DNA from: an uncultured Syntrophaceae bacterium
Lineage (GTDB): Bacteria; Desulfobacterota; BSN033; UBA1163
NCBI GenBank assembly: GCA_964570075.1
Contig: CAZMWF010000029.1
Location: 3,290 to 35,289, forward strand
Direction of reading: 5' to 3'
DNA length: 32,000 nucleotides
Position numbers and translations under genes: made by a program. The notes beneath the pieces are model-generated. The model made no database searches, was not told the DNA's origin, and saw only the letters and a list, made by a program, of their open reading frames with translations. Positions 2,723-31,947 of this stretch are shown piece after piece; the stretch's first letter is position 1; each line of letters begins with the position of its first letter.

Positions 2723-4705
2723 CTATGAAGACTCCCCGGAATCTCTTAGGATCCCTCTTCGAATGAATTCTTCACGGACATAGTCCAAACCCAATTTGTG
2801 GAGGGTCTCTTTCGTGGGAATTCCCCTTTCATCCCATCCCTTAAATCGATAATACTCTTCCAGAAGCTTGGCCTCATATTCAGGGAACCTCTTCTTCCAG
2901 TGATCGTCCGGGGGACGTTCATCTTCCTTCTTTAATCCCCTCAAGATATTAATCGCTCGAACCAGATTTCGATTCCGACTGGCAATGGTCCATAGTTTAT
3001 CCTCATCCATCTCTAAACCGGCAGCGTAGGAGATGATAAAGGGTAAGTTATGGATGTGATAAGGAGGTTTAATAGGAAAGGAGGAGAGCCCTGCACAGAT
3101 TCCAAGGGAGTCATCGATATAGTGCATGATCTCCTGCCAGTCCACGAGTTCACAGGCAACATCAATCGAGGGATAGTAAGGAAAAGCAGTTCCCGGCTCT
3201 CCCCAATCTAAAATAAATCGTTTAAACTTTTCCTCTTTTCCTGTCGGAATATGGATCCAGTCTTTCACAAACTCTTCTCTCTCCTCCCGAGTTGAAAATG
3301 GGGCCTGGGGAATCTGTCCTTCGATCTGAGTAATATTGATCTTTTCACCTGTGGACCACATCAGATAATAGATGGGATTGGTCACCCCCAATTTAATCGG
3401 AACCTGTTCATGTTTCTTGATCGTATTGTGATCGTAAGCCTCTGCCCCCTTTCCAATCTTTCGGGCAGCCCAATAGACGCCATCTGCCAACACATCTCCG
3501 ATCCCTTCCCTTCTTACAATTCGATCCAGAAGCCAATTGAACCTTCCTTCGATATCCTCTGGCATTCCCGAAAGATCTTCATCCGTCAAAATCCCGGCCT
3601 CATAAAGCTCGAGAGCAAAGGCCAATACCTGAGGGGTGGTAAACCCATCCACTCCATAATGCTGAGCCCTGGCCGCAATCTTTAAACCAAATTCAAGATC
3701 ATCGACCATAGCGGCCATCGTATAGGTAAGTTTTGAGAAACATTTCATGATGTAGGGGGGATGTCCTGGAAGGTGAATGATCCCTGCGCATCGAACCGGA
3801 CAGTTATAACAGCTGATCAACCGCTTTCTTGCCCTCTCGAGAGCATCCGCCCACATCTTCTCTACTTCCTTATTCCAGAAACCTTTTCTTCGATGTCGAG
3901 CATGTCCCCAAGCAAAACTGATGGTGTGCCATTCCTCATCGTGAAGGGCCATTTCTTGAGGAGAACCAATTCGAGCTAAAATGGGAGGAACTCCTGGAAG
4001 GGGATTATTTAATCGATGTTGGATGTACCTTAGGATCTCGTTGCAAGCCTCCACTAATTCAGCGGGTTTTGCAACCCTTACGTCTTTGGTTCCACGAACG
4101 GCGATGGCCTTTAATTTTTTGCTCCCCATGATCGCGCCCAGCCCCAATCGGCTGGCACTCCCCCGATGGGTCTCGATGGAAGCGAAATAGACCCTGTTTT
4201 CACCTGCAAGCCCGATAGACATGACCTGAGCCCTGGGTTCCTTTAATTCCTCTTTTATCTGTTCGGCTGTCTCATAGGTGCTTTTACCCTGCAGGTGAGT
4301 CGCATCCCGTATCTCCACCTTATCATTATTGATCCACAGATAGACCCAATCGGGGGATTTTCCACGAATGATGACCTTATCATAACCCGCATACTTCAAC
4401 TCAGGTGCCCAGAACCCACCCACCATCGAGAAGGCCATTAAAAGAGTTTGAGGAGAAATAGAAGAAATAATGGTTCGATTGGCTCCGGGCACAGGGGTTC
4501 CACCTAAAAGTCCACTGCTAAAAATCAGGAGATTCTCCGGTGAAAAAGGCTCTATCTCGGGCGGAACCCTATCCCATAAAATCTTGGCATTGGTTCCGAG
4601 GCCTCCAAGATGAAGTTCTGTATCTTTAGGATCCGTACTCACCCTCTCAATATTCCCACTTGAAAGGTCAACCTCTAAATTAAAACCCGTCTCTCCATAC
4701 CTCAT
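2723..4705 (-). CDS. Tungsten/molybdopterin aldehyde:ferredoxin oxidoreductase family protein, BamB-like (putative catalytic subunit of a class II benzoyl-CoA reductase-type enzyme)
   Basis: Length is 660 aa. The AOR N-terminal domain reads LEVDLSSGNIERV...LGGLGTNAKILWDRV. The [4Fe-4S] motif is CYNCPVRC, and GIGDVLADG is present. An RBS (AAGGGAGAA) lies upstream. BamB assignment rests on length, the N-terminus and synteny with the next three genes. Confidence 0.85.
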   Translation of the reverse strand: MRYGETGFNLEVDLSSGNIERVSTDPKDTELHLGGLGTNAKILWDRVPPEIEPFSPENLLIFSSGLLGGTPVPGANRTIISSISPQTLLMAFSMVGGFWAPELKYAGYDKVIIRGKSPDWVYLWINNDKVEIRDATHLQGKSTYETAEQIKEELKEPRAQVMSIGLAGENRVYFASIETHRGSASRLGLGAIMGSKKLKAIAVRGTKDVRVAKPAELVEACNEILRYIQHRLNNPLPGVPPILARIGSPQEMALHDEEWHTISFAWGHARHRRKGFWNKEVEKMWADALERARKRLISCYNCPVRCAGIIHLPGHPPYIMKCFSKLTYTMAAMVDDLEFGLKIAARAQHYGVDGFTTPQVLAFALELYEAGILTDEDLSGMPEDIEGRFNWLLDRIVRREGIGDVLADGVYWAARKIGKGAEAYDHNTIKKHEQVPIKLGVTNPIYYLMWSTGEKINITQIEGQIPQAPFSTREEREEFVKDWIHIPTGKEEKFKRFILDWGEPGTAFPYYPSIDVACELVDWQEIMHYIDDSLGICAGLSSFPIKPPYHIHNLPFIISYAAGLEMDEDKLWTIASRNRNLVRAINILRGLKKEDERPPDDHWKKRFPEYEAKLLEEYYRFKGWDERGIPTKETLHKLGLDYVREEFIRRGILRDSGESS

Positions 4706-19620: not shown

Positions 19621-20844
19621 TCAACCTCGATCCACCTGAACAATGGCTCCTTCCCCCTGGGCGAGTCCCCCGCAGATCGAGGCCACTCCCATTCCACCCC
19701 CTCTTCTTCTCAACTCATAGATCATCGTCATCAGGATCCTTCCTCCACTGGCTCCTACAGGATGGCCAATGGCAATTGCTCCTCCATTGACATTGATCTT
19801 CTCTAAAATCCCTTTCATCCTCTCCGGATCCCCATTCGAAAGAATCTTGGCGCTGACCAGGGGCATGGCAGCAAAGGCTTCATTGATCTCGATAAGGTCG
19901 ATTTGGTCAAGGGAGAGATTGACTTTTTTTAAGACCTTCTGGATGGTGAAACCTGGGATAGCCGCAATGAGCCTTGGATCCGTGGCAGTGGGAATCATGG
20001 AGACGATTTTTGCCAAGGGCTTAAGTCCCTTCTCTTCTGCCTTCCTTCGACTCATGATGAGAATGGCTGCAGCACCGGTATCGAGTCCGGGCGCATTTCC
20101 AGCGGTTACGGTGGGGCTTCCATAAACCGTAGGAAGTCTGGCGAGTTTTTCAAGAGTCGTATCTGGCTTTGGAAATTCGTCCTTTTCAAGAATAATGGGA
20201 GGCCCCTTCTTTTGAGGAATCTCGACCCGCATCAACTCCTCTCCGATCTTAAATTTTCCCTCCTGCCAGGCCTTTACATACTTCATCTGACTCTCATAAG
20301 CCCATCGATCCTGATCCTCCCGAGTGACTCCATATTCGAGGGCCACTTCTCCTGCGTCGACAGAGACAGGATTAAATCCTTTATATCCCAGTTCATAGAG
20401 ACCATCCCATATCTGAATATTTCCCAATCTTTTCCCCCACCGCACATCCGGAGGAATGACATAGGGAGTTCTACTCATGTTATCGGAACCCACCGCTAAA
20501 GCCACATCAATTTCACCGCTTCGGATCGCACGATACCCGAATCGAAGAGCAGCCAGAGAAGAACAGCAAGCCCGATCCAGGGTAATTGAAATGGACTCCC
20601 CCGGCATCCCTGCTTTGAGGGTGGCTTGTCTTGCGGGAACATCCGTCTCCAGGGCTGCCTCCCCAATAACGGCTGTTCCGTAATAGGTTTCTTCCACCTC
20701 ATCCCCTCTCAGGCCCACCCTTTGAAGGACTTCCCGAATCACCATCGCCCCCAACTCTATGGATGGAATGTCCTTTAAGACCCCTCCAAACTTCCCAAAG
20801 GGGGTTCGAACTGCACTCACCACCCAAACCTCCTGCTCCCTCAT
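19621..20844 (-). CDS. Thiolase (acetyl-CoA C-acyl/acetyltransferase family)
   Basis: Motifs AVRTPFGKFGG, LDRACCSSL (nucleophile region), NVNGGAIAIGHPVGASG and ICGGLAQG are present. An RBS (GGAGGAGG) lies upstream. Confidence 0.9.
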   Translation of the reverse strand: MREQEVWVVSAVRTPFGKFGGVLKDIPSIELGAMVIREVLQRVGLRGDEVEETYYGTAVIGEAALETDVPARQATLKAGMPGESISITLDRACCSSLAALRFGYRAIRSGEIDVALAVGSDNMSRTPYVIPPDVRWGKRLGNIQIWDGLYELGYKGFNPVSVDAGEVALEYGVTREDQDRWAYESQMKYVKAWQEGKFKIGEELMRVEIPQKKGPPIILEKDEFPKPDTTLEKLARLPTVYGSPTVTAGNAPGLDTGAAAILIMSRRKAEEKGLKPLAKIVSMIPTATDPRLIAAIPGFTIQKVLKKVNLSLDQIDLIEINEAFAAMPLVSAKILSNGDPERMKGILEKINVNGGAIAIGHPVGASGGRILMTMIYELRRRGGGMGVASICGGLAQGEGAIVQVDRG

Positions 20845-23233: not shown

Positions 23234-24073
23234 ATGGATCTTTATGAAATATTGATGAAACGGCGCTCCATCAGGGTGTTTCAAGAACAAGAAATCCCTG
23301 ATGAGATTATCGAAAAACTCCTCGATGTGGCTATCCACGGGCCATCAGGAGGAAATCTTCAACCCTTCTCGATCATCTTGGTTCGAAGCCAGGAAGGAAA
23401 GAAAAAACTGGCAGAACTTTCGGGTGGACAACCCTGGGTCACCAAGGCCCCTCTCACCCTGATCTTCTGTCTCGATTTCTTCCGTATCAAAAGATGGGCT
23501 GACTCCTGCGAGGTGGATTTCAAAGGAGAGAAGGCCCTCAATCATTTTCTCATTGCTTATGCCGATTTGATGATTGCGGCCCAAAGTGTAGCGATCCTTG
23601 CAGAAACCTATGGCCTTGGTTCGGTCTATATTGGTTCCATCCAGCATGAGATCGATGAGACGAGAAAATACTTTGAAATCCCAGAATATGTCCTTCCGAT
23701 GATGCTCCTCTCCATCGGCTTTCCCAAATCCATCCCTCCCTCTATTCCTAAATTAAAGAAGGAGATCATGATCCATAAAGAAAGATATCAGAAACCGAGT
23801 GACGAGGCAATTCGGAGGGCCTTGGATGAAAAATATGGACCCATCGATCAGAATCTTGAGAAATATCTGGAAAGGATTTTCATAGAAGCCCTGGAAGCTG
23901 AGAAATTAGACGCCTCCAGCTATATGGAGCGAGTCAAAAAGGAGATGAAGCGACTCGACATTCAAAATAATGCCCAGTTTCTCTTCAAAGTGAGATACCC
24001 CACCAAGGTGATGGTTCGGATGAATCGACGATTCAAAGAATCGTTCAAAAACGCTGGATTTGAAATCTTCTAA
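23234..24073 (+). CDS. Nitroreductase-family flavoprotein with a roughly 100-aa C-terminal extension
   Basis: Motifs RRSIRVFQEQEIPDE and GPSGGNLQPF are present. An RBS (AAGGGGAAAGG) lies upstream. Confidence 0.8.
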   Translation: MDLYEILMKRRSIRVFQEQEIPDEIIEKLLDVAIHGPSGGNLQPFSIILVRSQEGKKKLAELSGGQPWVTKAPLTLIFCLDFFRIKRWADSCEVDFKGEKALNHFLIAYADLMIAAQSVAILAETYGLGSVYIGSIQHEIDETRKYFEIPEYVLPMMLLSIGFPKSIPPSIPKLKKEIMIHKERYQKPSDEAIRRALDEKYGPIDQNLEKYLERIFIEALEAEKLDASSYMERVKKEMKRLDIQNNAQFLFKVRYPTKVMVRMNRRFKESFKNAGFEIF

Positions 24074-24075
24074 AA

Positions 24076-25047
24076 TTACTCTCCCACAGGGAAATGGCAT
24101 GAAACCCAATGGTTCTCTCCTATGTCTTTCAATTCGGGTTCCATCTCTCGACAAAAATTTCTTCGATAGGGACATCGGGAATAAAATCGACACCCTTCCG
24201 GAAGATTGATGGGACTCGGGATTTCTCCTTGGAGAAGGATTCTTCGTTTCTTCATTTTCGGATCAGGGAAAGGAACCGCAGAAAGAAGAGCCTGGGTGTA
24301 AGGATGTTTCGGTGAAGTGTAAAGAGCGGTATCCTTTGCCAGCTCCACGATCTTCCCAAGGTACATCACTGCCACTCGATCACTGATATGTTCCACGACA
24401 CTCAGATCGTGTGCAATAAAAAGGTAAGAAAGCCCCGTCTCCTCTTGGAGTTTGATGAGGAGATTGATGACCTGGGCTTGGATCGACACATCGAGAGCCG
24501 AGACGGGCTCATCACAGATGATCAGTTTGGGATTAAGGGCCAACGCCCTTGCAATACCGATCCGCTGTCGTTGTCCCCCGCTGAATTCATGAGGAAATCT
24601 ATTGGCCTGCTCAGGATGAAGCCCTACTTTCTCCATAAGATAAAAGACCCGATCCTGAATCTCTCCCTTGGAGGCAGGGATATGATTTCTTATTGGCTCT
24701 GCAATAATTTCTTTTACGGTCATTCTTGGATTCAAAGAGGAGTAAGGGTCCTGGAAGATAATCTGGAGTTTAGCCCTCACTTTCCGCAGAGATTCCCTGT
24801 TCAACTTTAGCAGATTCTCCCCATCGAACAGGATTTCCCCTGAATCAGGTTCGATCAGTCGGAGAATACATCGGCCCACGGTCGTCTTCCCGCATCCACT
24901 CTCGCCCACCAGTCCAAGGGTTTCTCCAGGATAGAGAGTAAAGCTCACTCCATCCACGGCCTGAACCCATCCTATCATTCTGGAGAAGAGTCCTTTTCGA
25001 ACAGGAAAGTATTTCTTGAGATCCTTGACTTGAAGAATCAGGTCCAT
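24076..25047 (-). CDS. Oligopeptide/dipeptide ABC transporter ATP-binding protein (DppF/OppF-like)
   Basis: Walker A is GESGCGKTT, the signature is FSGGQRQR and Walker B is LIICDEP. The C-terminal oligopeptide domain reads [13 protein letters not shown] prefer ATG 25047 over TTG 25056. Confidence 0.9.
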
Positions 25048-26015
25048 AACCAACAAAATACCCTCCGACCATGCTTCACGATAAGTGGGGGCTCTTCATT
25101 TCGACATCTATCCCTTGCGGTTAAACATCGGGGGTGAAATCGGCACCCCCTCGGCATCTCTTTAAGGCTTGGCACCATTCCAGGAATTTCCTGAAGGGGT
25201 TTTCTCCCTTCTTTTATCTTTCTCCCCATCCAAGGAATGGATTCGAGAAGACCCTTGGTATAGGGATGAAGGGGTTCAGAAAAAAGCTCTTCCACCGGTG
25301 CCTCCTCGACAATTTTCCCTGCATACATCACCACTACTCGTTTGGCCATCTCAGCAATCAGACCTAAATTGTGGGTAATTAATAGGATGGATGTCCGGAT
25401 CTCTTCTTTTAGATGTTCCATCAGGTCTACAATCTGAGCCTGAATGGTCACATCGAGCGCTGTCGTCGGTTCATCGGCCAAAAGCAACCTGGGATGGCAA
25501 GAAAGGGCCATCGCAATCATCGCCCGCTGTCTCATCCCTCCACTCAATTTGTGAGGATATTCTCTGGCTCGGATCCGAGGAGAAGGGATTTGGACCCTCT
25601 CGAGCATCTCCACCGCTTTCTCCCAAGCCTCCTCCCTCCCCAACCCCTGATGAAGACGGATCGCCTCGGCGATCTGTTCTCCAATAGTGAGGACAGGGTT
25701 AAGAGAGGTCATCGGTTCCTGAAAGATCATCGAGATGGAATTGCCTCGGATCCTCCTTATCTCATCCAGACTCATTTTAAGAAGGTCATTTCCATCAAAC
25801 AGAATCTGCCCCTCTATCTGGGCAGGAGGCGAGGCGAGCAGTCTCAAGATTGAGAGTGCCGTGACGCTTTTCCCGCATCCACTCTCTCCAACCACCCCAA
25901 GAGTTTCACCCGGGTAGATCTCGAGATGAATCCCGTCCACCGCGGTGAGAACTCCTTCATAGGTATGAAACCTTGTCCTTAAATCTTTGATGGAGAGGAG
26001 AGGTTCTTGCTTCAT
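25038..26015 (-). CDS. Oligopeptide/dipeptide ABC transporter ATP-binding protein (DppD/OppD-like)
   Basis: Motifs [30 protein letters not shown] and HPYTKGLL are present. The start overlaps the permease stop (ATGA). Confidence 0.9.
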
Positions 26016-26842
26016 GATTTGAATCGTGGATCCAACATATCCCTTAATCCATCTCCTGAAAGGTTAAAACCCAACACAGCAAAAAAGATAGCCATTCCAG
26101 GAAAGGTGGCCACATGGGGGGCATGAAAGAGGTAGGGACGACCAGAACCTAACATGGCTCCCCATTCAGGAGTGGGAGGTTGAACTCCGATTCCTAAGAA
26201 ACCTAACCCGGCTGCGAAAAGGATGGCGGTCCCCATTCCCAAACTGGTCTGAATGGTGATGGGAGCCATCACGTTGGGTAAAATGTGTCGAAATAGAATG
26301 GTGAGGTCCCGTGTCCCCAAGGCTCGAGCGGCCTCGACATAAGTCTGTTCTTTCACTGAAAGAGTACACCCCCGAACCAAGCGAATGTAAATTGGAATCA
26401 TGCTGATTCCCACTGAAATGATCGTATTCTTTAATCCTACACCCAAAACCGCTACCAGGGCCAGCGCTAAAAGAAACCCCGGAAATGCTAACAAGGTATC
26501 GGTGGCACGTTGAATTCCAAAATCGACTTTCCCTCCATAGTAACCAGAGATAAGTCCCAATGGGACTCCTATGAAGAGCCCGACACAAACAACTCCAATA
26601 GCGATCAGCAAGGAAACACGAGAGCCATAAATGATTCTTCCAAGAATCGAACGGCCCAACTCATCTTTACCCAAAGGTTCTTTTATCGAGGGACGCTCTA
26701 AAGCTTTGGCAAGGTTGGGCGCTGAAGGATTCCCTGGATAGAGAAGGGGAGCGAATAGGGCTGTCACGAGGTAAATCAATAGGAGGATGCTCCCGAAGAG
26801 GGCGGCCTTATTTTTCTTAAATCTCCTCCATGGATTAATCAT
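26012..26842 (-). CDS. ABC transporter permease (DppC/OppC-like)
   Basis: The N-terminus is WRRFKKNKAALFG and multiple TM segments follow. The EAA-type loop reads YVEAARALGTRDLTILFRHILPN. I prefer ATG 26842 over TTG 26860. Confidence 0.88.
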   Translation of the reverse strand: MINPWRRFKKNKAALFGSILLLIYLVTALFAPLLYPGNPSAPNLAKALERPSIKEPLGKDELGRSILGRIIYGSRVSLLIAIGVVCVGLFIGVPLGLISGYYGGKVDFGIQRATDTLLAFPGFLLALALVAVLGVGLKNTIISVGISMIPIYIRLVRGCTLSVKEQTYVEAARALGTRDLTILFRHILPNVMAPITIQTSLGMGTAILFAAGLGFLGIGVQPPTPEWGAMLGSGRPYLFHAPHVATFPGMAIFFAVLGFNLSGDGLRDMLDPRFKS

Positions 26843-27755
26843 ATCGAATCCTCGGATCAAGATAGGCGTAAAGTAAATCCACCCCTAAATTTACCAGAAT
26901 ATAAAGGAGTCCAAAAATGAGGATAGCCCCTTGGATGACTGGATAATCCCTGGCCAAAATGGAGTCTACGATGAGGCGGCCCATCCCTGGCCATGCAAAG
27001 ACGGTTTCCGTGAGGACGGCACCCCCGAGAAGAAGTCCGAACTGAAGGCCAACGACTGTGATGATCGGAATCATGGCATTTTTGAGGGCATGTTTGATCA
27101 CGACGACCTCTTCCTTAAGACCTTTGGAACGGGCCGTGGTCGTGTAATCCTGAGAAAGAGCCTCAATCATACTCGCTCGAGTCATTCGGGTAATGAAGGC
27201 CACGACAAAGGCCGCCAAAGTCAGAGAGGGAAGGATGAGGTGCTTCCAGCTCCCGGTCCCTCCGGCAGGGAGCCAATGAAGGATTACAGAAAATAAAATG
27301 ATCAACATCAATCCAAGCCAGAAAACAGGCATAGAAATCCCGAAGAGGGCCATGGAGGTGAATAGGTAATCGATCCATGTATAAGGTCTGATTGCCGCTA
27401 AAATTCCAGCAGGAATCCCGAAGAGGCAAGCGAGGGCAATGGCTGTAACGGCAAGAAGGATGGTATTGGGAAGCCGGGCCCAAACCTCCTGGATGACGGG
27501 ATGCTGAGTTCGAGCAGAGCGACCCAAATCGAACCTCACTAAACGACCAAGAAAGAGCCCATACTGGACGAGCACGGGCCGATGGAGTCCGAGCTGTTGC
27601 CGAATGGTTTCTATCTCTTCGGGGCTCGCCATCTGTCCAGCAAGAACTTGAGCCGGATCTCCTGGTAACATTCGGAGCATGAAAAAAAGGAGAAGAGAGA
27701 TCCCAAAGAGGACGGGGATAGCCGAAAAAAGACGTTTTAGGACATATTGAAACAT
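26835..27755 (-). CDS. ABC transporter permease (DppB/OppB-like)
   Basis: The N-terminus is MFQYVLKRLFSAIPVLFGISLLLFF and the C-terminus is DLLYAYLDPRIR. Confidence 0.9.
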   Translation of the reverse strand: MFQYVLKRLFSAIPVLFGISLLLFFMLRMLPGDPAQVLAGQMASPEEIETIRQQLGLHRPVLVQYGLFLGRLVRFDLGRSARTQHPVIQEVWARLPNTILLAVTAIALACLFGIPAGILAAIRPYTWIDYLFTSMALFGISMPVFWLGLMLIILFSVILHWLPAGGTGSWKHLILPSLTLAAFVVAFITRMTRASMIEALSQDYTTTARSKGLKEEVVVIKHALKNAMIPIITVVGLQFGLLLGGAVLTETVFAWPGMGRLIVDSILARDYPVIQGAILIFGLLYILVNLGVDLLYAYLDPRIRYD

Positions 27756-27797
27756 AGGAATTACGATTTAGGAATGTGGACGTCTTCTTCAGATCAC

Positions 27798-27858
27798 GAG
27801 GCCCGTTTCGGGGAGAAACAGCGAACTATCCAATCACCCATTCACCGAAACGGGCCTC
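27798..27858 (-). other. Intercistronic stem-loop between the binding-protein and permease genes
   Basis: GAGGCCCGTTTCGG (27798-27811) pairs perfectly over 14 bp with CCGAAACGGGCCTC (27845-27858). The loop is 33 nt. Confidence 0.6.
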
Positions 27859-27890
27859 ACCACTTTAACCCTCAGACGAAATGTGATTTC

Positions 27891-29441
27891 TCACTCCATC
27901 TTAATATAGGTTGGATAAAATTTTTCGGTACTGGTCACCACCATTCCCTTAATCTTTTTAGAATAGGCAATCACAAACTTTTCTACATGGAGCCAAATCC
28001 ATGGACAATCATCCCAGACTATCTCCGAAGCCTTCTTCAAAATTTCCAGTCGTTTCTTAGGATCCTGTTCCATTCTTGAGGCGTCCATCAATTTGTCATA
28101 TTCAGGATTACTATAAAAAGCGGATCCTAACCCTTTGGGAGGATTGACGCTCGAGTGAAACTGACCATAGAGCCCCATGTCTGCATCAAGAATTAATGGC
28201 CCCCATCCTAAAAGGAAGACCTCCAATTCGGTCTGATCGAGGGGTTTCGTTAATCCCGCAACATAGGTCGGCCAATCATAGGTTCTGAGCTCGGTCTTTA
28301 CCCCAATGGCCTGAAGATAAGCCTGAACCGCTTCGGAGACCTGTTTATCGAAAAGATACCGACCCTGAGGGGTTCTCATCTTCACGGTTTGATTGAAATC
28401 AAAATTCGCTTTTTTTAGAAGTTCCTTTGCTTTTTCAGGATTATACTCATACTGATGGGCCATCCTGTGATAGCCAAAAAGGATCGGAGAGACAGGTCCA
28501 TCCATCGGGACTGCCGTATCAAAAAGGATCTTGCTGCAGATGGCCTTCTTATCGACGGCATAATTAAAAGCCTGCCTTACCAGTTTATTCTTCGTAACCC
28601 CCTTTTGGCAATTCAATCCCATGAAGATCGTTCTCGTATCCAGCGGCATCTCTACGGTAATATTAGGATCCGCTTTCAAAGAGGCCACATTCGATGGAAT
28701 CGGTTTATAGCAGACATCGATCTGGCCGGTTCGAAGCATCGTTTCTCGTGTCGCATCATCAGGAATGATTTTGAAGGTCAATCTCTCCACCGTGGGCTTT
28801 GGGCCGTAGTAATTTTCGTTTCGCACCAGGACAATCCGATCCCCCTTTACCCATTCCTTTAGCACAAAGGGGCCTGCTCCTACTGGATGTTGGCGAACCT
28901 CCTCTCCATATTTTTCTATGGCGGCTGGAGAAATGGGACTGGTGATCGTCAAAGAGAGGGTAGGAGCAAAAGGAGCAAAGGGATATTTGAGTTCGATTTT
29001 GAGGGTGGAATCGTCAATCACCTTTACCTCCTTAATCATAGCAATAGCAAAACGGAGAGGAACCCTCATCTTTGGATCAAGGGCTCGGTCAAAGGTCAAT
29101 TTCACTGCTTTGGCATCGCAGGGAGTCCCATCGCTAAACTTCACTCCTTTTCTGAGATGGATGAGATAGGTCAGGCCATCTTTGGAGACCTCATATTTGG
29201 TGGCCAATCGCCCTTCTAATTTTCCATCTGGGGTTTGAAAAAAGAGGGTGTCATGAATTAAATCGCTTATATTCTGCATCAATGTGGTCGTATGTTCCTG
29301 AGGATTCAATGTATCCGCATCAATTCCGATCCCAATTCGTAGCTCTTTAATTTGGGCTGGAGTCTGAGAAATGAGGGTCATGACCATCCCCAGGATAAAA
29401 AAAGCGAAAACTAAAATTTTAGAACAAATATTTTTTCCCAT
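27891..29441 (-). CDS. ABC transporter substrate-binding protein, family 5 (DppA/OppA-like)
   Basis: Length is 516 aa with a signal peptide. It shows the typical SBP_bac_5 pattern (LRIGIGIDADTLNP...GPFVLKEWVKGDRIVLVRNENYYG). An RBS (AAAGGAGGAAG) lies upstream. Confidence 0.9.
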   Translation of the reverse strand: MGKNICSKILVFAFFILGMVMTLISQTPAQIKELRIGIGIDADTLNPQEHTTTLMQNISDLIHDTLFFQTPDGKLEGRLATKYEVSKDGLTYLIHLRKGVKFSDGTPCDAKAVKLTFDRALDPKMRVPLRFAIAMIKEVKVIDDSTLKIELKYPFAPFAPTLSLTITSPISPAAIEKYGEEVRQHPVGAGPFVLKEWVKGDRIVLVRNENYYGPKPTVERLTFKIIPDDATRETMLRTGQIDVCYKPIPSNVASLKADPNITVEMPLDTRTIFMGLNCQKGVTKNKLVRQAFNYAVDKKAICSKILFDTAVPMDGPVSPILFGYHRMAHQYEYNPEKAKELLKKANFDFNQTVKMRTPQGRYLFDKQVSEAVQAYLQAIGVKTELRTYDWPTYVAGLTKPLDQTELEVFLLGWGPLILDADMGLYGQFHSSVNPPKGLGSAFYSNPEYDKLMDASRMEQDPKKRLEILKKASEIVWDDCPWIWLHVEKFVIAYSKKIKGMVVTSTEKFYPTYIKME

Positions 29442-29470
29442 CTTCTTCCTCCTTTCTTAAACCATTGGAT

Positions 29471-30670
29471 TTAGATTTGGCATTTGAAAAATTGTCCTTC
29501 TTTCATAATGGCCAAAATCTTTTCCCTCTCCTGGAGTAACGTGATCTCCTGAAGGGGATCTCCGTCAATGACGACCAGATCGGCTATTTTTCCTTCTTCA
29601 ATCGTTCCGATTTTTTGTTCCAACCCCAATACTTCAGAGGCGGTTTGGGTGGCGGCGACGATGGCCTCCATCGGGCTCAGTCCTATTTTAACGAGCAACT
29701 CCATCTCTTTCAAATTCTTGCCGTGACAGTTAAAGGGAGTGCCTGCATCGGTTCCCATGGCGATGCGGATCCCAGCTCGATAGGCTCTCCGGACACTTTC
29801 CCAATGACGTTTAATGACTGCCTTGGATTTCTCAACGGCAAAGGGAGGAACTCCTCTCCTCACCCCTGCCTGAATAATAAAATAGGGAGCACTGAGAGTG
29901 GGTATCAGAAAGGTCTTCATCTCTAACATCAACTCGATGGCTTCGTCATCCAGGAAAAATCCATGTTCGATGGAGGTGACCCCTGCCCATAGAGAATTCT
30001 TGATCCCTTCTGTGCCTTGGGCATGAGTGGCGGTTCGCCTTCCAGCCTTTCTCGCCTCTTCTACCCCAGCCATCAACTCCTCGAGAGTAAACTGAGTGGC
30101 TCCAGGTTCCACCCCCTTCGTCATTACCCCACCCGTTGCCATTAATTTAACGAAATCAACCCCTGCTTTAAGCTGTTCTCGAACCGCTGCCCTCACCTCG
30201 TCTACTCCATTGGCTTCCCGCCCAAAGGGCCAACCATGGCCGCCAGTCATACAGACCAATTTCCCACTACAGACCATCCTGGGGCCTATTAGAAGTCCAG
30301 ATTGAATTCCGTCTCGAAGAGCGAGATCGATATAGTCCTTCCCTCCCATATCCCGAACCGTGGTTATCCCCGCTTCGAGGGTCATTCGAGCATGGTGAGC
30401 GGCCTTCAGGGTAATCTGAGGAATAGATTCCTTTAAAATAGATGAGATAGGATCAGGGCTCCCATCCAGACAGAAATGGACATGGGTATCAATCAAACCT
30501 GGCAGAATCGTCTTTCCAGAAAGGTCAAAAATGCTCGCCTTCCTTGCTGACGGAACCCTCTTCCCGGATCCAACAAATTTTATCCACCTTCCTTCTACAA
30601 TGACCATTCCCTTCTCAATGATCTTTCCATTCCCAACAATAATTTTACCATTTCTAAATTGAATAGCCAT
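29471..30670 (-). CDS. Metal-dependent amidohydrolase-superfamily protein
   Basis: Motif LPGLIDTHVHF supplies the HxH metal ligands. VDFVKLMATGGV, ATHAQG and SIEHG...GTDAG are also present. I prefer ATG 30670, which follows GGGAGGAA, over ATG 30706. Confidence 0.85.
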   Translation of the reverse strand: MAIQFRNGKIIVGNGKIIEKGMVIVEGRWIKFVGSGKRVPSARKASIFDLSGKTILPGLIDTHVHFCLDGSPDPISSILKESIPQITLKAAHHARMTLEAGITTVRDMGGKDYIDLALRDGIQSGLLIGPRMVCSGKLVCMTGGHGWPFGREANGVDEVRAAVREQLKAGVDFVKLMATGGVMTKGVEPGATQFTLEELMAGVEEARKAGRRTATHAQGTEGIKNSLWAGVTSIEHGFFLDDEAIELMLEMKTFLIPTLSAPYFIIQAGVRRGVPPFAVEKSKAVIKRHWESVRRAYRAGIRIAMGTDAGTPFNCHGKNLKEMELLVKIGLSPMEAIVAATQTASEVLGLEQKIGTIEEGKIADLVVIDGDPLQEITLLQEREKILAIMKEGQFFKCQI

Positions 30671-30729
30671 TGGATTCCTCCCACGGATGGATCCTTCATG
30701 GTTCATCCCAATTCATCCCTATTCGTCCC

Positions 30730-31947
30730 TTAAAAATATTGGATTGTCCCATCGGGATAGAGGGCCACCTTTGCCTCCTTTCCCCACTCGGCTCTCAACA
30801 ATTCCAGAACTTCTTCCCATGTCTTAACCCAGAGAATATTCGAAACCTTCCCGAAAAAACAAGCCCCTACGTGATCTCTAATAGGGGAAAGAATGATCAT
30901 CCGCTTCACCTTGGTCGGAAGAGGTTGAGGAAGTCGAAGCCTCCCTTCCCCACATCTTCCAAATTCGCCAAAAAGGTAATGGACCATCTGTCCTGAAGGT
31001 TCATTGGCAATGATCACCAGATCTCCTCCTTCTTCTTTTAAAGAAGGAATCCCGATAAAAGGGGCAATGGCGGCCTCGTTCGCTTTCGAAAAGGTGTTCA
31101 CGACAACAATATCCATCCCCCTGGCAGGAGTGGTAAGATAGACCTCTCTGGCCAATTTCATCCCTTCGTGGTGCTCCTGGAGAGGATCCCCTACAAAGAG
31201 GCTCGTGATCTCTCCTCGAAGATTAAGGATGGCGTCAATCTTTAAATCAAGTTTTGCCATTCGGGCCGCTTCTTCCATGTCGAAACGCGGGATGTTTCCA
31301 TCCATCCTTCCTAATCCCACACATTCAGGATACTTTTGAATGAGACTATGATTATGAGCAATGGAATCGATATGGGCAACCCCGGGAAGGATAATCTTGG
31401 CTCCTCCTCCAAAGCCTGAAAAAGAATGGGGAACAATACACCCAATCCCAATTTTTAGATCACAGGCCATCACTTCTTTATTGATTGAAACGGGAGTCCC
31501 GTAACTTGTTTTTCCAAGATATTGACAATAATCGAAGGGATGATGATTATAGACGGGAAAACGGTCCAGCACCTCCTGTCCAAGTTTTTTCTTAAAATCG
31601 TTGGCGGTGTGAGCCCCGTGGGCACCCAAAGCGGCTATTAAACGAACTTGATTATCTTGGATCTTGGCTTTCTCAAGCTCTCTCAACACAAAAGGAAGGA
31701 TGTGATAAACGGGGGTCGGTCTGGCCAGATCATCAAATAGAATGACAATCTCCCTCTTCCCTTTAGCCAACTCGTGGAGAGGAGGAGTTCCAATGGGATG
31801 GGTAAAAGCTTCCTCCATTTCTCTCCCGTTGAGTCTCCTCTTTTCTCCTCCTTTCATCGGACAGTAGAAGAGAGACCAGGACGAAGGAAATTCTAATTCC
31901 ATCTCTGTCTTTCCGTACCAGAGAAGTTGAGGAACCTTGACTTTCAT
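30730..31947 (-). CDS. LarA-like (DUF2088) protein, a putative nickel-pincer-cofactor-dependent 2-hydroxyacid racemase/epimerase homologue
   Basis: Motif HPIGTPPLHELAKGKREIVILFDDLARPTP resembles the LarA N-terminal domain. ALGAHGAHT and PHSFSGFGGGAKIILPG are also present; the latter carries the His and Lys positions I recall for LarA His174/Lys184. VAHIDSIAHNH follows. Confidence 0.7.
   Translation of the reverse strand: MKVKVPQLLWYGKTEMELEFPSSWSLFYCPMKGGEKRRLNGREMEEAFTHPIGTPPLHELAKGKREIVILFDDLARPTPVYHILPFVLRELEKAKIQDNQVRLIAALGAHGAHTANDFKKKLGQEVLDRFPVYNHHPFDYCQYLGKTSYGTPVSINKEVMACDLKIGIGCIVPHSFSGFGGGAKIILPGVAHIDSIAHNHSLIQKYPECVGLGRMDGNIPRFDMEEAARMAKLDLKIDAILNLRGEITSLFVGDPLQEHHEGMKLAREVYLTTPARGMDIVVVNTFSKANEAAIAPFIGIPSLKEEGGDLVIIANEPSGQMVHYLFGEFGRCGEGRLRLPQPLPTKVKRMIILSPIRDHVGACFFGKVSNILWVKTWEEVLELLRAEWGKEAKVALYPDGTIQYF

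Follow-up and report, generated by a model that had tools for sequence, protein, structure and literature searches.

The window, that is, the whole stretch of 32,000 nucleotides analysed here (contig CAZMWF010000029.1, positions 3,290 to 35,289, from an uncultured Syntrophaceae bacterium whose genome of 2.43 Mb is 97% complete), carries a gene for a homologue of the lactate racemase LarA, hereafter LarAH, followed by genes for an amidohydrolase and a peptide-type importer. Few enzymes of the LarA family have an assigned substrate, and new substrates are sought mainly through gene context. A preliminary description had read the cluster as one operon serving a single salvage route. Our analyses suggest instead, with a probability of about 0.58, that two separable modules are juxtaposed in a longer co-directional array and do not depend on each other, while a shared pathway is possible. 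The open reading frame (ORF) listing gives seven intact minus-strand ORFs at 24076-31947, at the same coordinates as the preliminary description; together with the hairpin between two of them and the gene at their 3' boundary, they are the following.

30730 to 31947, minus strand: LarAH, 405 amino acids; Pfam Lar_N PF09861, 192.6 bits, E 5.8e-57.
29471 to 30706, minus strand: amidohydrolase (AHyd) of the COG1228 type with a binuclear metal site, 411 amino acids; Pfam Amidohydro_1, 196.8 bits, E 7.7e-58.
27891 to 29441, minus strand: family-5 periplasmic solute-binding protein (SBP5), 516 amino acids, with an N-terminal signal peptide; SBP_bac_5, 324.7 bits, E 1e-96.
27798 to 27858, minus strand: hairpin in the 135-nt spacer between the SBP5 and PermB genes, -44.6 kcal/mol, z -2.6.
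26835 to 27755, minus strand: PermB, ATP-binding cassette (ABC) permease of the DppB/GsiC/NikB type, 306 amino acids; BPD_transp_1 and BPD_transp_1_N.
26012 to 26860, minus strand: PermC, ABC permease of the DppC/GsiD type, 282 amino acids; BPD_transp_1 and OppC_N.
25038 to 26015, minus strand: ATPD, ABC ATPase of the DppD/OppD type, 325 amino acids; ABC_tran and oligo_HPY.
24076 to 25056, minus strand: ATPF, ABC ATPase of the DppF/OppF type and last gene of the array, 326 amino acids; ABC_tran and oligo_HPY.
23234 to 24073, plus strand: NTR, a convergent nitroreductase-family gene (Pfam Nitroreductase) at the 3' boundary.

From the LarA gene to ATPF, successive genes are separated by 23, 29, 135, -26, -4 and -19 nt, in agreement with the seven minus-strand genes with overlaps or gaps of at most 135 nt that had been described. 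The cluster does not begin with LarA, however: it forms part of an array of 17 co-directional genes in which no gap exceeds 135 nt and of which ten continue upstream past the end of the window. Reading upstream from LarA on the same strand, these encode LivF (98 nt from LarA), LivG, LivM, LivH, two Peripla_BP_6 binding proteins (LivK2 and LivK1), an SDR, an SPL-like radical SAM protein, a ParB_N protein and a GT2. The consensus scan returned no terminator at the LivF-LarA or the LarA-amidohydrolase junction, the promoter and terminator scans gave nothing exceeding the shuffled expectation, and in three full loci Rfam matched neither a riboswitch nor any other RNA family. Because only 23 nt lie behind the LarA stop codon and no terminator is seen there, the amidohydrolase-Dpp genes are probably co-transcribed with the Liv genes and LarA in this lineage. 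Of the proposed seven-gene operon, the co-transcription thus probably holds, but the seven genes are not one dedicated unit. The hairpin behind the SBP5 gene is matched in stability by only 1 of 200 shuffles; a stable hairpin is the usual device after genes for ABC binding proteins. One related locus (L016:3613-3647) shows a parallel feature, a 16-bp GC-rich hairpin between the second Liv binding-protein gene and livH. Upstream of the window on its own contig C29 (L211:6040-9812), the block of GT2, ParB_N, SPL-like radical SAM and SDR genes, with its odd pairing of SPL and ParB_N, precedes the Liv and LarA genes throughout the family. At the other end, NTR is a conserved backbone neighbour outside the seven-gene unit; in related loci it stands on the opposite strand, either after the cassette or directly after LarAH.

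For the comparative analysis, the window proteins were mapped onto 13 genome loci and 80 metagenome loci encoding LarA relatives, the latter being the best-scoring 80 of 344 matches and biased to close relatives; statements about trees refer to a quick maximum-likelihood IQ-TREE of LarA with SH-aLRT support. LarA orthologues (74-96% identity) are found in a single family of Thermodesulfobacteriota, where 10 of the 11 sampled genomes encode one, and the next best LarA matches among 400 genomes of the phylum reach at most 50% identity. Within this family the genes follow a common backbone: GT2, ParB, SPL, SDR, a first variable slot, LarA, a second variable slot, the nitroreductase on the opposite strand, optionally trpD, a thiolase and sometimes a beta-oxidation cluster. 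The first slot lies between SDR and LarA. Of 73 informative loci, 65 have a Liv-type ATPase gene upstream of LarA and co-directional with it (type A in 38, type B in 27), and in 48 of 68 loci this gene is the direct upstream neighbour of LarA; in basal loci such as L053, L066 and L070 the slot is empty and SDR abuts LarA. The two Liv types are only about 42% identical, well-supported branches of the LarA tree force at least 5-8 changes between the Liv-type labels, and both types combine with both downstream states. As for what the Liv systems might carry, the solved structures nearest to their binding proteins come for the most part from structural genomics and are uncharacterised (among them 3I45, 3N0X and 4EY3), and the classical Leu/Ile/Val-binding proteins rank behind them; 3I45 is the nearest structure to both binding proteins, a literature search on this entry found nothing, and scores against the NCBIfam LivJ/K and UrtA models fall far below the cut-offs.

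The second slot, downstream of LarA, is informative in 69 loci and contains the amidohydrolase in 30 (43%), while LarA is followed directly by the thiolase in 25, by NTR in 2 and by other genes in the remaining 12. Since these other occupants include a genuine trpD (313 bits, cut-off 199), backbone neighbours need not be functionally related. In one lineage (L090, L091 at 3550-4668, and L096) the slot holds an M24 peptidase with Creatinase_N and Peptidase_M24 domains, nearest to PepQ-type Xaa-Pro dipeptidases and below their cut-off. A group II intron reverse transcriptase/maturase (L073:3532-4584) and a PIN-domain gene with a small upstream ORF (L046:11610-12414) also occur there, which fits an insertion-prone site. 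Farther down the backbone, the window's thiolase (19621-20844) is followed by a lipid-type operon, and in L020:9537-18011 and L022 the thiolase is followed by TetR, an MBL-fold protein, a 3-hydroxyacyl-CoA dehydrogenase/enoyl-CoA hydratase fusion, a thiolase and an acyl-CoA dehydrogenase; having other followers in relatives, the thiolase is a backbone gene that is not specific to the window's lipid-type operon.

Each of the two modules can be found without the other. More than half of the informative loci have a LarA orthologue and no amidohydrolase-Dpp cassette, and three genomes of the same family (G011, G053 and G216) encode a LarA orthologue without an amidohydrolase orthologue. Conversely, a phylum-wide search with the amidohydrolase recovered a second group of loci in which the amidohydrolase is 52-59% identical; in seven of these, from other genera, identity to the window's proteins is 70-82% for the binding protein and 65-86% for permeases and ATPases, and the genes form stand-alone operons of amidohydrolase, SBP5 (sometimes in two copies), PermB, PermC, ATPD and ATPF with no LarA adjacent. 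In six of the seven, the amidohydrolase gene opens the operon and is preceded by a divergently transcribed neighbour. One of the seven, genome G186, belongs to the window's own family and possesses the cassette, and its best LarA match is only 33% identical; upstream of that stand-alone operon lie divergent genes for a BglII-like restriction endonuclease and a DNA methylase (L201:9385-10943). Yet another arrangement is seen in L063:4113-10223, where LarA is followed by a GntR/FCD regulator, an amidohydrolase (59% identity), an MR/MLE enolase-superfamily enzyme (370 amino acids, below all equivalog cut-offs), and a different family-5 binding protein with its Dpp system, a layout typical of peptide utilisation. 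Outside the family, LarA homologues of 42-50% identity in 20 genomes have no Liv, amidohydrolase, Dpp or thiolase neighbours. The adjacency of SDR and LarA does recur with a 49% homologue in another family, and we consider SDR-LarA as a real pair to be a lead, drawn from the basal loci and this one homologue. In three Dehalococcoidia loci from metagenome-assembled genomes of Chloroflexota (L024:9989-14031, L025 and L026), a LarA homologue of 47% identity is followed by a LutC-like gene and by a fused LutB/LutA-like gene (LUD, 4Fe-4S, CCG), which suggests that in this branch racemisation feeds a lactate-type oxidase and acts on a small 2-hydroxy acid such as lactate. A dedicated unit of LarA, amidohydrolase and transporter is not supported by this comparison: the linkage is confined to one family, either module occurs alone, and the commonest neighbour of LarA is the upstream Liv importer.

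Several observations nevertheless weigh against treating the modules as independent. Within the family, a LarA orthologue and an amidohydrolase of at least 75% identity are always neighbours where both are encoded, as seen in 7 of 7 genomes and in 29 metagenome loci; the gap is mostly 16-45 nt, and such consistency is also what would be expected of a functional pair. The M24 peptidase, which is not homologous to AHyd and takes the same slot in three loci, could represent analogous gene displacement. Mapped on the LarA tree, the amidohydrolase label changes 16 times, at least 9 of them forced by well-supported branches, and it is still phylogenetically clustered (none of 500 shuffles is as low). 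Repeated gains and one early insertion with later losses explain this pattern equally well, and the count of changes is therefore no proof of independence. The simplest account is that a portable operon for peptide uptake and hydrolysis was placed behind LarA early in the family, was kept in about four of ten lineages and was lost in the others.

With respect to the proteins themselves, the assignment of LarAH to the LarA superfamily is supported. In alignments to solved LarA structures it keeps D72, R76, H110, H174, K184 and H200, which correspond to Asp72, Arg75, His108, His174, Lys184 and His200 of LarA; D72, R76, K184 and H200 align to 5huq and 2yjg, H110 lies within GAHG and H174 within PHSF, and the motifs quoted at the outset are found where expected (DDLARPTP at residue 72, GAHGAH at 108 and PHSFSGFGGGAK at 173). 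All six residues are invariant among 21 close relatives; across 95 diverse relatives invariance extends to R76, H110 and H200, with conservation of at least 90% for H174 and K184. The AlphaFold2 model derived from the alignment of relatives has a mean pLDDT of 96.6, and Foldseek matches it to holo-LarA structures (6c1w, 8ezf, 9eia) with TM-scores of 0.82-0.84 and E values of about 1e-28. Membership in the family with cofactor and catalytic residues in place, as the preliminary description had claimed, is therefore borne out by alignment and fold alike.

Its specificity is another matter. LarAH scores below the cut-off of all six NCBIfam equivalog models for LarA proteins (lactate racemase, malate racemase LarAH5/H6, LarAH10, LarAH14-16, hexonate epimerase), the best match being the LarAH6 malate racemase model with 227.9 bits against a cut-off of 500 and over residues 9-284 only. 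Likewise, when the sequence is searched singly, most LarA proteins align to it over residues 9-285 only, and a profile is needed for the C-terminal half. In the C-terminal domain of Isosphaera pallida LarA, Gln295 and Lys298, called relatively conserved, bind the substrate carboxylate (PMC11851776), and Phe175, Phe176, Trp358 and Thr359 are the four specificity residues of LarA (Urdiain-Arraiza 2024, PMC11770544). Our description of the LarAH pocket comes from sequence alignments. In HMMER alignments to 5huq and 9eid, the Gln295 and Lys298 positions are Ala292 and Ala295, beside a deletion of 3-4 residues; the register is uncertain, and alternative registers likewise place only non-polar residues at these positions; K288, N290 and E291 might act as substitutes. 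The Phe175 position is Ser, Phe176 is kept, and the loop of Trp358/Thr359 falls in a deletion. As predicted from these alignments, the C-terminal pocket differs from that of all characterised groups, and LarAH is a putative 2-hydroxyacid racemase or epimerase of the nickel-pincer-nucleotide (NPN) type, belonging to an uncharacterised subfamily whose substrate is not predictable from the published rules.

The genome supports the availability of the NPN cofactor for LarAH. It was correctly stated beforehand that no larB, larC or larE lies in the window; all three occur elsewhere in the genome above curated NCBIfam cut-offs (LarC 214.7 bits vs 90, LarE 332.5 vs 150, LarB 313 vs 175), so the objection that the organism might lack NPN biosynthesis falls away. 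The same genome encodes five Lar_N proteins, namely LarAH and four paralogues of 424-505 amino acids on contigs C37, C113, C97 and C28 (L011, L012, L014 and L015), and all five stay below every NCBIfam equivalog cut-off. It is unusual for so small a genome, of 2.4 Mb, to encode five nickel-pincer enzymes that are all uncharacterised.

The identification of a metal amidohydrolase with a complete Dpp/Opp-type importer is likewise confirmed. Aligned with 9kov and 2qs8, AHyd has all its metal ligands (H75/H77, K187, H228, H248 and D320), and its relatives in the PDB (2qs8, 3mtw, 3feq/3n2c, 8ihq and 4c5y) match over the full length with E values of 1e-46 to 1e-77. It would resemble a carboxypeptidase or a dipeptidase; because it reaches 360 bits against the cut-off of 500 of the Xaa-Pro dipeptidase equivalog (NF051886), its exact substrate is not assignable from scores. 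All parts of an importer of the Dpp/Opp/Gsi type (PepT family) are present: SBP_bac_5 with a signal peptide, two BPD_transp_1 permeases and two oligo_HPY ATPases. The nearest relatives of SBP5 are GsiB/YliB (1uqw, 255.7 bits, full length) and then DppA, while NikA gives 147 bits over residues 40-361 only in the PDB search; against NCBIfam, SBP5 scores 285 bits for GsiB and 197 for NikA (cut-off 393). At the position aligned to Asp408 of DppA, which we take to be the residue binding the peptide alpha-ammonium group, a low-identity alignment places Leu in SBP5, and GsiB-like proteins are likewise without the Asp. PermB passes the cut-off of the Opp2B "nickel ABC permease" model (357.3 vs 350) and stays below that of GsiC (353.5 vs 463), every NCBIfam match of PermC is below its cut-off, and ATPF is assigned to subfamily PRK11308 (424.9 vs 408); the models NikC (274 vs 358), NikD (253 vs 319) and NikE (278 vs 333) reach about 75-85% of their cut-offs. 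Taken as a unit, the transporter and hydrolase are ordinary.

It seems reasonable to argue, on the reading of two juxtaposed modules, that the first module is LarAH, whose cofactor the genome can supply through its LarB, LarC and LarE. As in all family members characterised so far, LarAH would invert the C2 stereocentre of a 2-hydroxy acid through proton-coupled hydride transfer between His110 and His174. Its gene belongs to the family-specific syntenic backbone that runs from GT2, the ParB-like and SPL-like radical SAM genes and SDR through LarA to trpD/thiolase, and the Liv-type importer between SDR and LarA, its most frequent direct partner, may deliver its substrate. The replacement of one Liv system by a paralogous one at the same site makes a functional link of Liv and LarA plausible. 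The second module would be an autonomous operon of amidohydrolase and DppABCDF. A di- or tripeptide-like compound would enter through the GsiB/DppA-like SBP5 and its ABC translocator, and the COG1228 hydrolase, judging from homology, may then cleave the C-terminal amide bond of that compound.

The idea put forward in the preliminary description is that of integrated salvage: an imported amide-linked compound would be hydrolysed by the amidohydrolase, and LarA would invert the 2-hydroxy acid so released. Spelled out, the Dpp system would take up, for instance, an N-(2-hydroxyacyl)-amino acid (an N-lactoyl amino acid or a D-lactyl peptide), and the inversion would yield the oxidisable enantiomer. 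This route is tempting in view of the tight LarA-amidohydrolase spacing (23 nt here, 16-45 nt in most relatives) and of the adjacency of the two genes in every family genome holding both, and characterised COG1228 relatives do release C-terminal amino acids from N-acyl or peptidyl groups, tolerating acyl groups that are not amino acids, as in ochratoxinase. The prolidase-like M24 gene of L090, L091 and L096 in the same slot points the same way, and the Chloroflexota homologues directly upstream of lactate-oxidation genes suggest a lactate-like substrate for the wider subfamily. A Leu in place of Asp408 would also fit a ligand without a free N-terminal amine, but this argument is weak given that GsiB-like proteins lack the Asp too. 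Against this route stand the existence of each module without the other, the restriction of the linkage to one family and its absence from distant homologues, and the L063 locus, where a GntR regulator stands between LarA and the amidohydrolase and an MR/MLE enzyme belongs to the cassette itself. On balance we judge it unlikely. Somewhat less likely again is a bolder version, in which LarAH is a hub between exchangeable uptake cassettes (Liv A or B upstream, amidohydrolase-Dpp or M24 downstream) and constitutes with its partner hydrolase an undescribed salvage of N-(2-hydroxyacyl)-amino acids or lactyl peptides by import, amide hydrolysis and nickel-pincer racemisation. Even less likely is that a pocket predicted to lack the Gln295/Lys298 clamp would let LarAH act on the amide-linked compound itself.

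Doubtful to much the same degree as the hub is the opposite extreme of pure synteny, in which LarA has no functional tie to any neighbour, Liv included, and sits between two permissive insertion sites of a conserved backbone. The order of the backbone is kept across the family while the slots vary and admit plainly unrelated housekeeping genes such as trpD, Liv genes are missing between SDR and LarA in the basal loci L053, L066 and L070, and all orthologues come from one family. The exchange of two Liv systems in the same slot over at least 5-8 forced changes looks, however, like replacement driven by selection, only genes for solute uptake or peptidases enter either slot, and SDR-LarA adjacency reappears beyond the family. 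There remains the metal: lar loci elsewhere are known to adjoin nickel importers, and the Dpp-type system might be a NikABCDE-like importer of nickel or a nickel chelate for the LarA cofactor, with the amidohydrolase processing the chelator. The Opp2B assignment of PermB and the near approach of the NikC, NikD and NikE models speak for it, but the Opp2B call is marginal next to a nearly equal score against GsiC, and SBP5 is far nearer to GsiB and DppA than to NikA, which it matches only partially in the PDB alignment. Moreover, the cassette always begins with a gene for a dipeptidase-like hydrolase and in some genomes lies apart from any LarA gene, and the amidohydrolase of L063 has a dipeptide-epimerase-like enzyme as its partner; a role in nickel supply is accordingly very improbable.

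The hydrolase and peptide importer directly downstream of LarA, its obvious context, turn out to be a facultative, portable cassette, and the Liv-type importer and the SDR dehydrogenase are the more frequent partners of the racemase homologue, so that ligand screening is redirected to the two Liv binding proteins. The locus also calls for caution against reading tight gene spacing alone as a pathway. Should the salvage of amide-linked compounds prove true after all, a nickel-pincer racemase would for the first time be connected with the breakdown of amide-linked hydroxy acids.

Compared with the characterised LarA superfamily (Lactobacillus plantarum LarA 5HUQ/6C1W, Isosphaera pallida LarA 9EIA and T. 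thermosaccharolyticum Mar2 6D6Z; PMC7583248, PMC11770544), LarAH shares the two-domain fold, the N-terminal catalytic and cofactor residues and a genome encoding LarB, LarC and LarE, and departs from it in the non-polar residues at the Gln295/Lys298 positions, the change of Phe175 to Ser, the deleted Trp358/Thr359 loop and scores below every NCBIfam LarAH cut-off. A literature search found no paper linking a lactate racemase homologue to an amidohydrolase and an ABC transporter. The terms COG0683, COG0410, COG0411, COG0747, COG1228 and COG0183 and peptidase terms are absent from the supplementary files of Desguin 2020, Table S1 included (PMC7583248), and in the accessible part of its Dataset S2 the only match to the subfamily motifs is an unrelated group-10 protein. 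In the same Table S1, LarAH group 9 is associated at 80% with an ABC-type polar amino-acid transporter and an aminotransferase, and the study ties groups 18 and 19 to SDRs. Group 9 offers a precedent for an uncharacterised LarA homologue beside an amino-acid-type ABC importer, although that importer is of the polar amino-acid type and the one here is of the Liv/HAAT type; no evidence of kinship between group 9 and the window's LarAH was found. LarAH is an uncharacterised member of a known superfamily in a gene context not previously tabulated.

The second module has more familiar counterparts. With the COG1228 structures, namely the Cc2672 L-Arg carboxypeptidase 3MTW, the Xaa-Pro dipeptidase 2QS8, the prolidases 3FEQ/3N2C and the ochratoxinase-type amidases 4C5Y and 8IHQ, AHyd shares the HxH motif, the carbamylated-Lys position, two His and the Asp, and differs in falling short of the Xaa-Pro dipeptidase equivalog. 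In the iaaA-gsiABCD genes of E. coli, a peptidase gene heads the Gsi operon. The window's importer resembles E. coli GsiABCD and DppABCDF in having all five component types and oligo_HPY ATPases, and in its stand-alone versions a hydrolase again stands at the head; it differs in the Leu at the position of DppA Asp408, and every component falls below its equivalog cut-off except PermB (Opp2B) and ATPF (PRK11308 subfamily).

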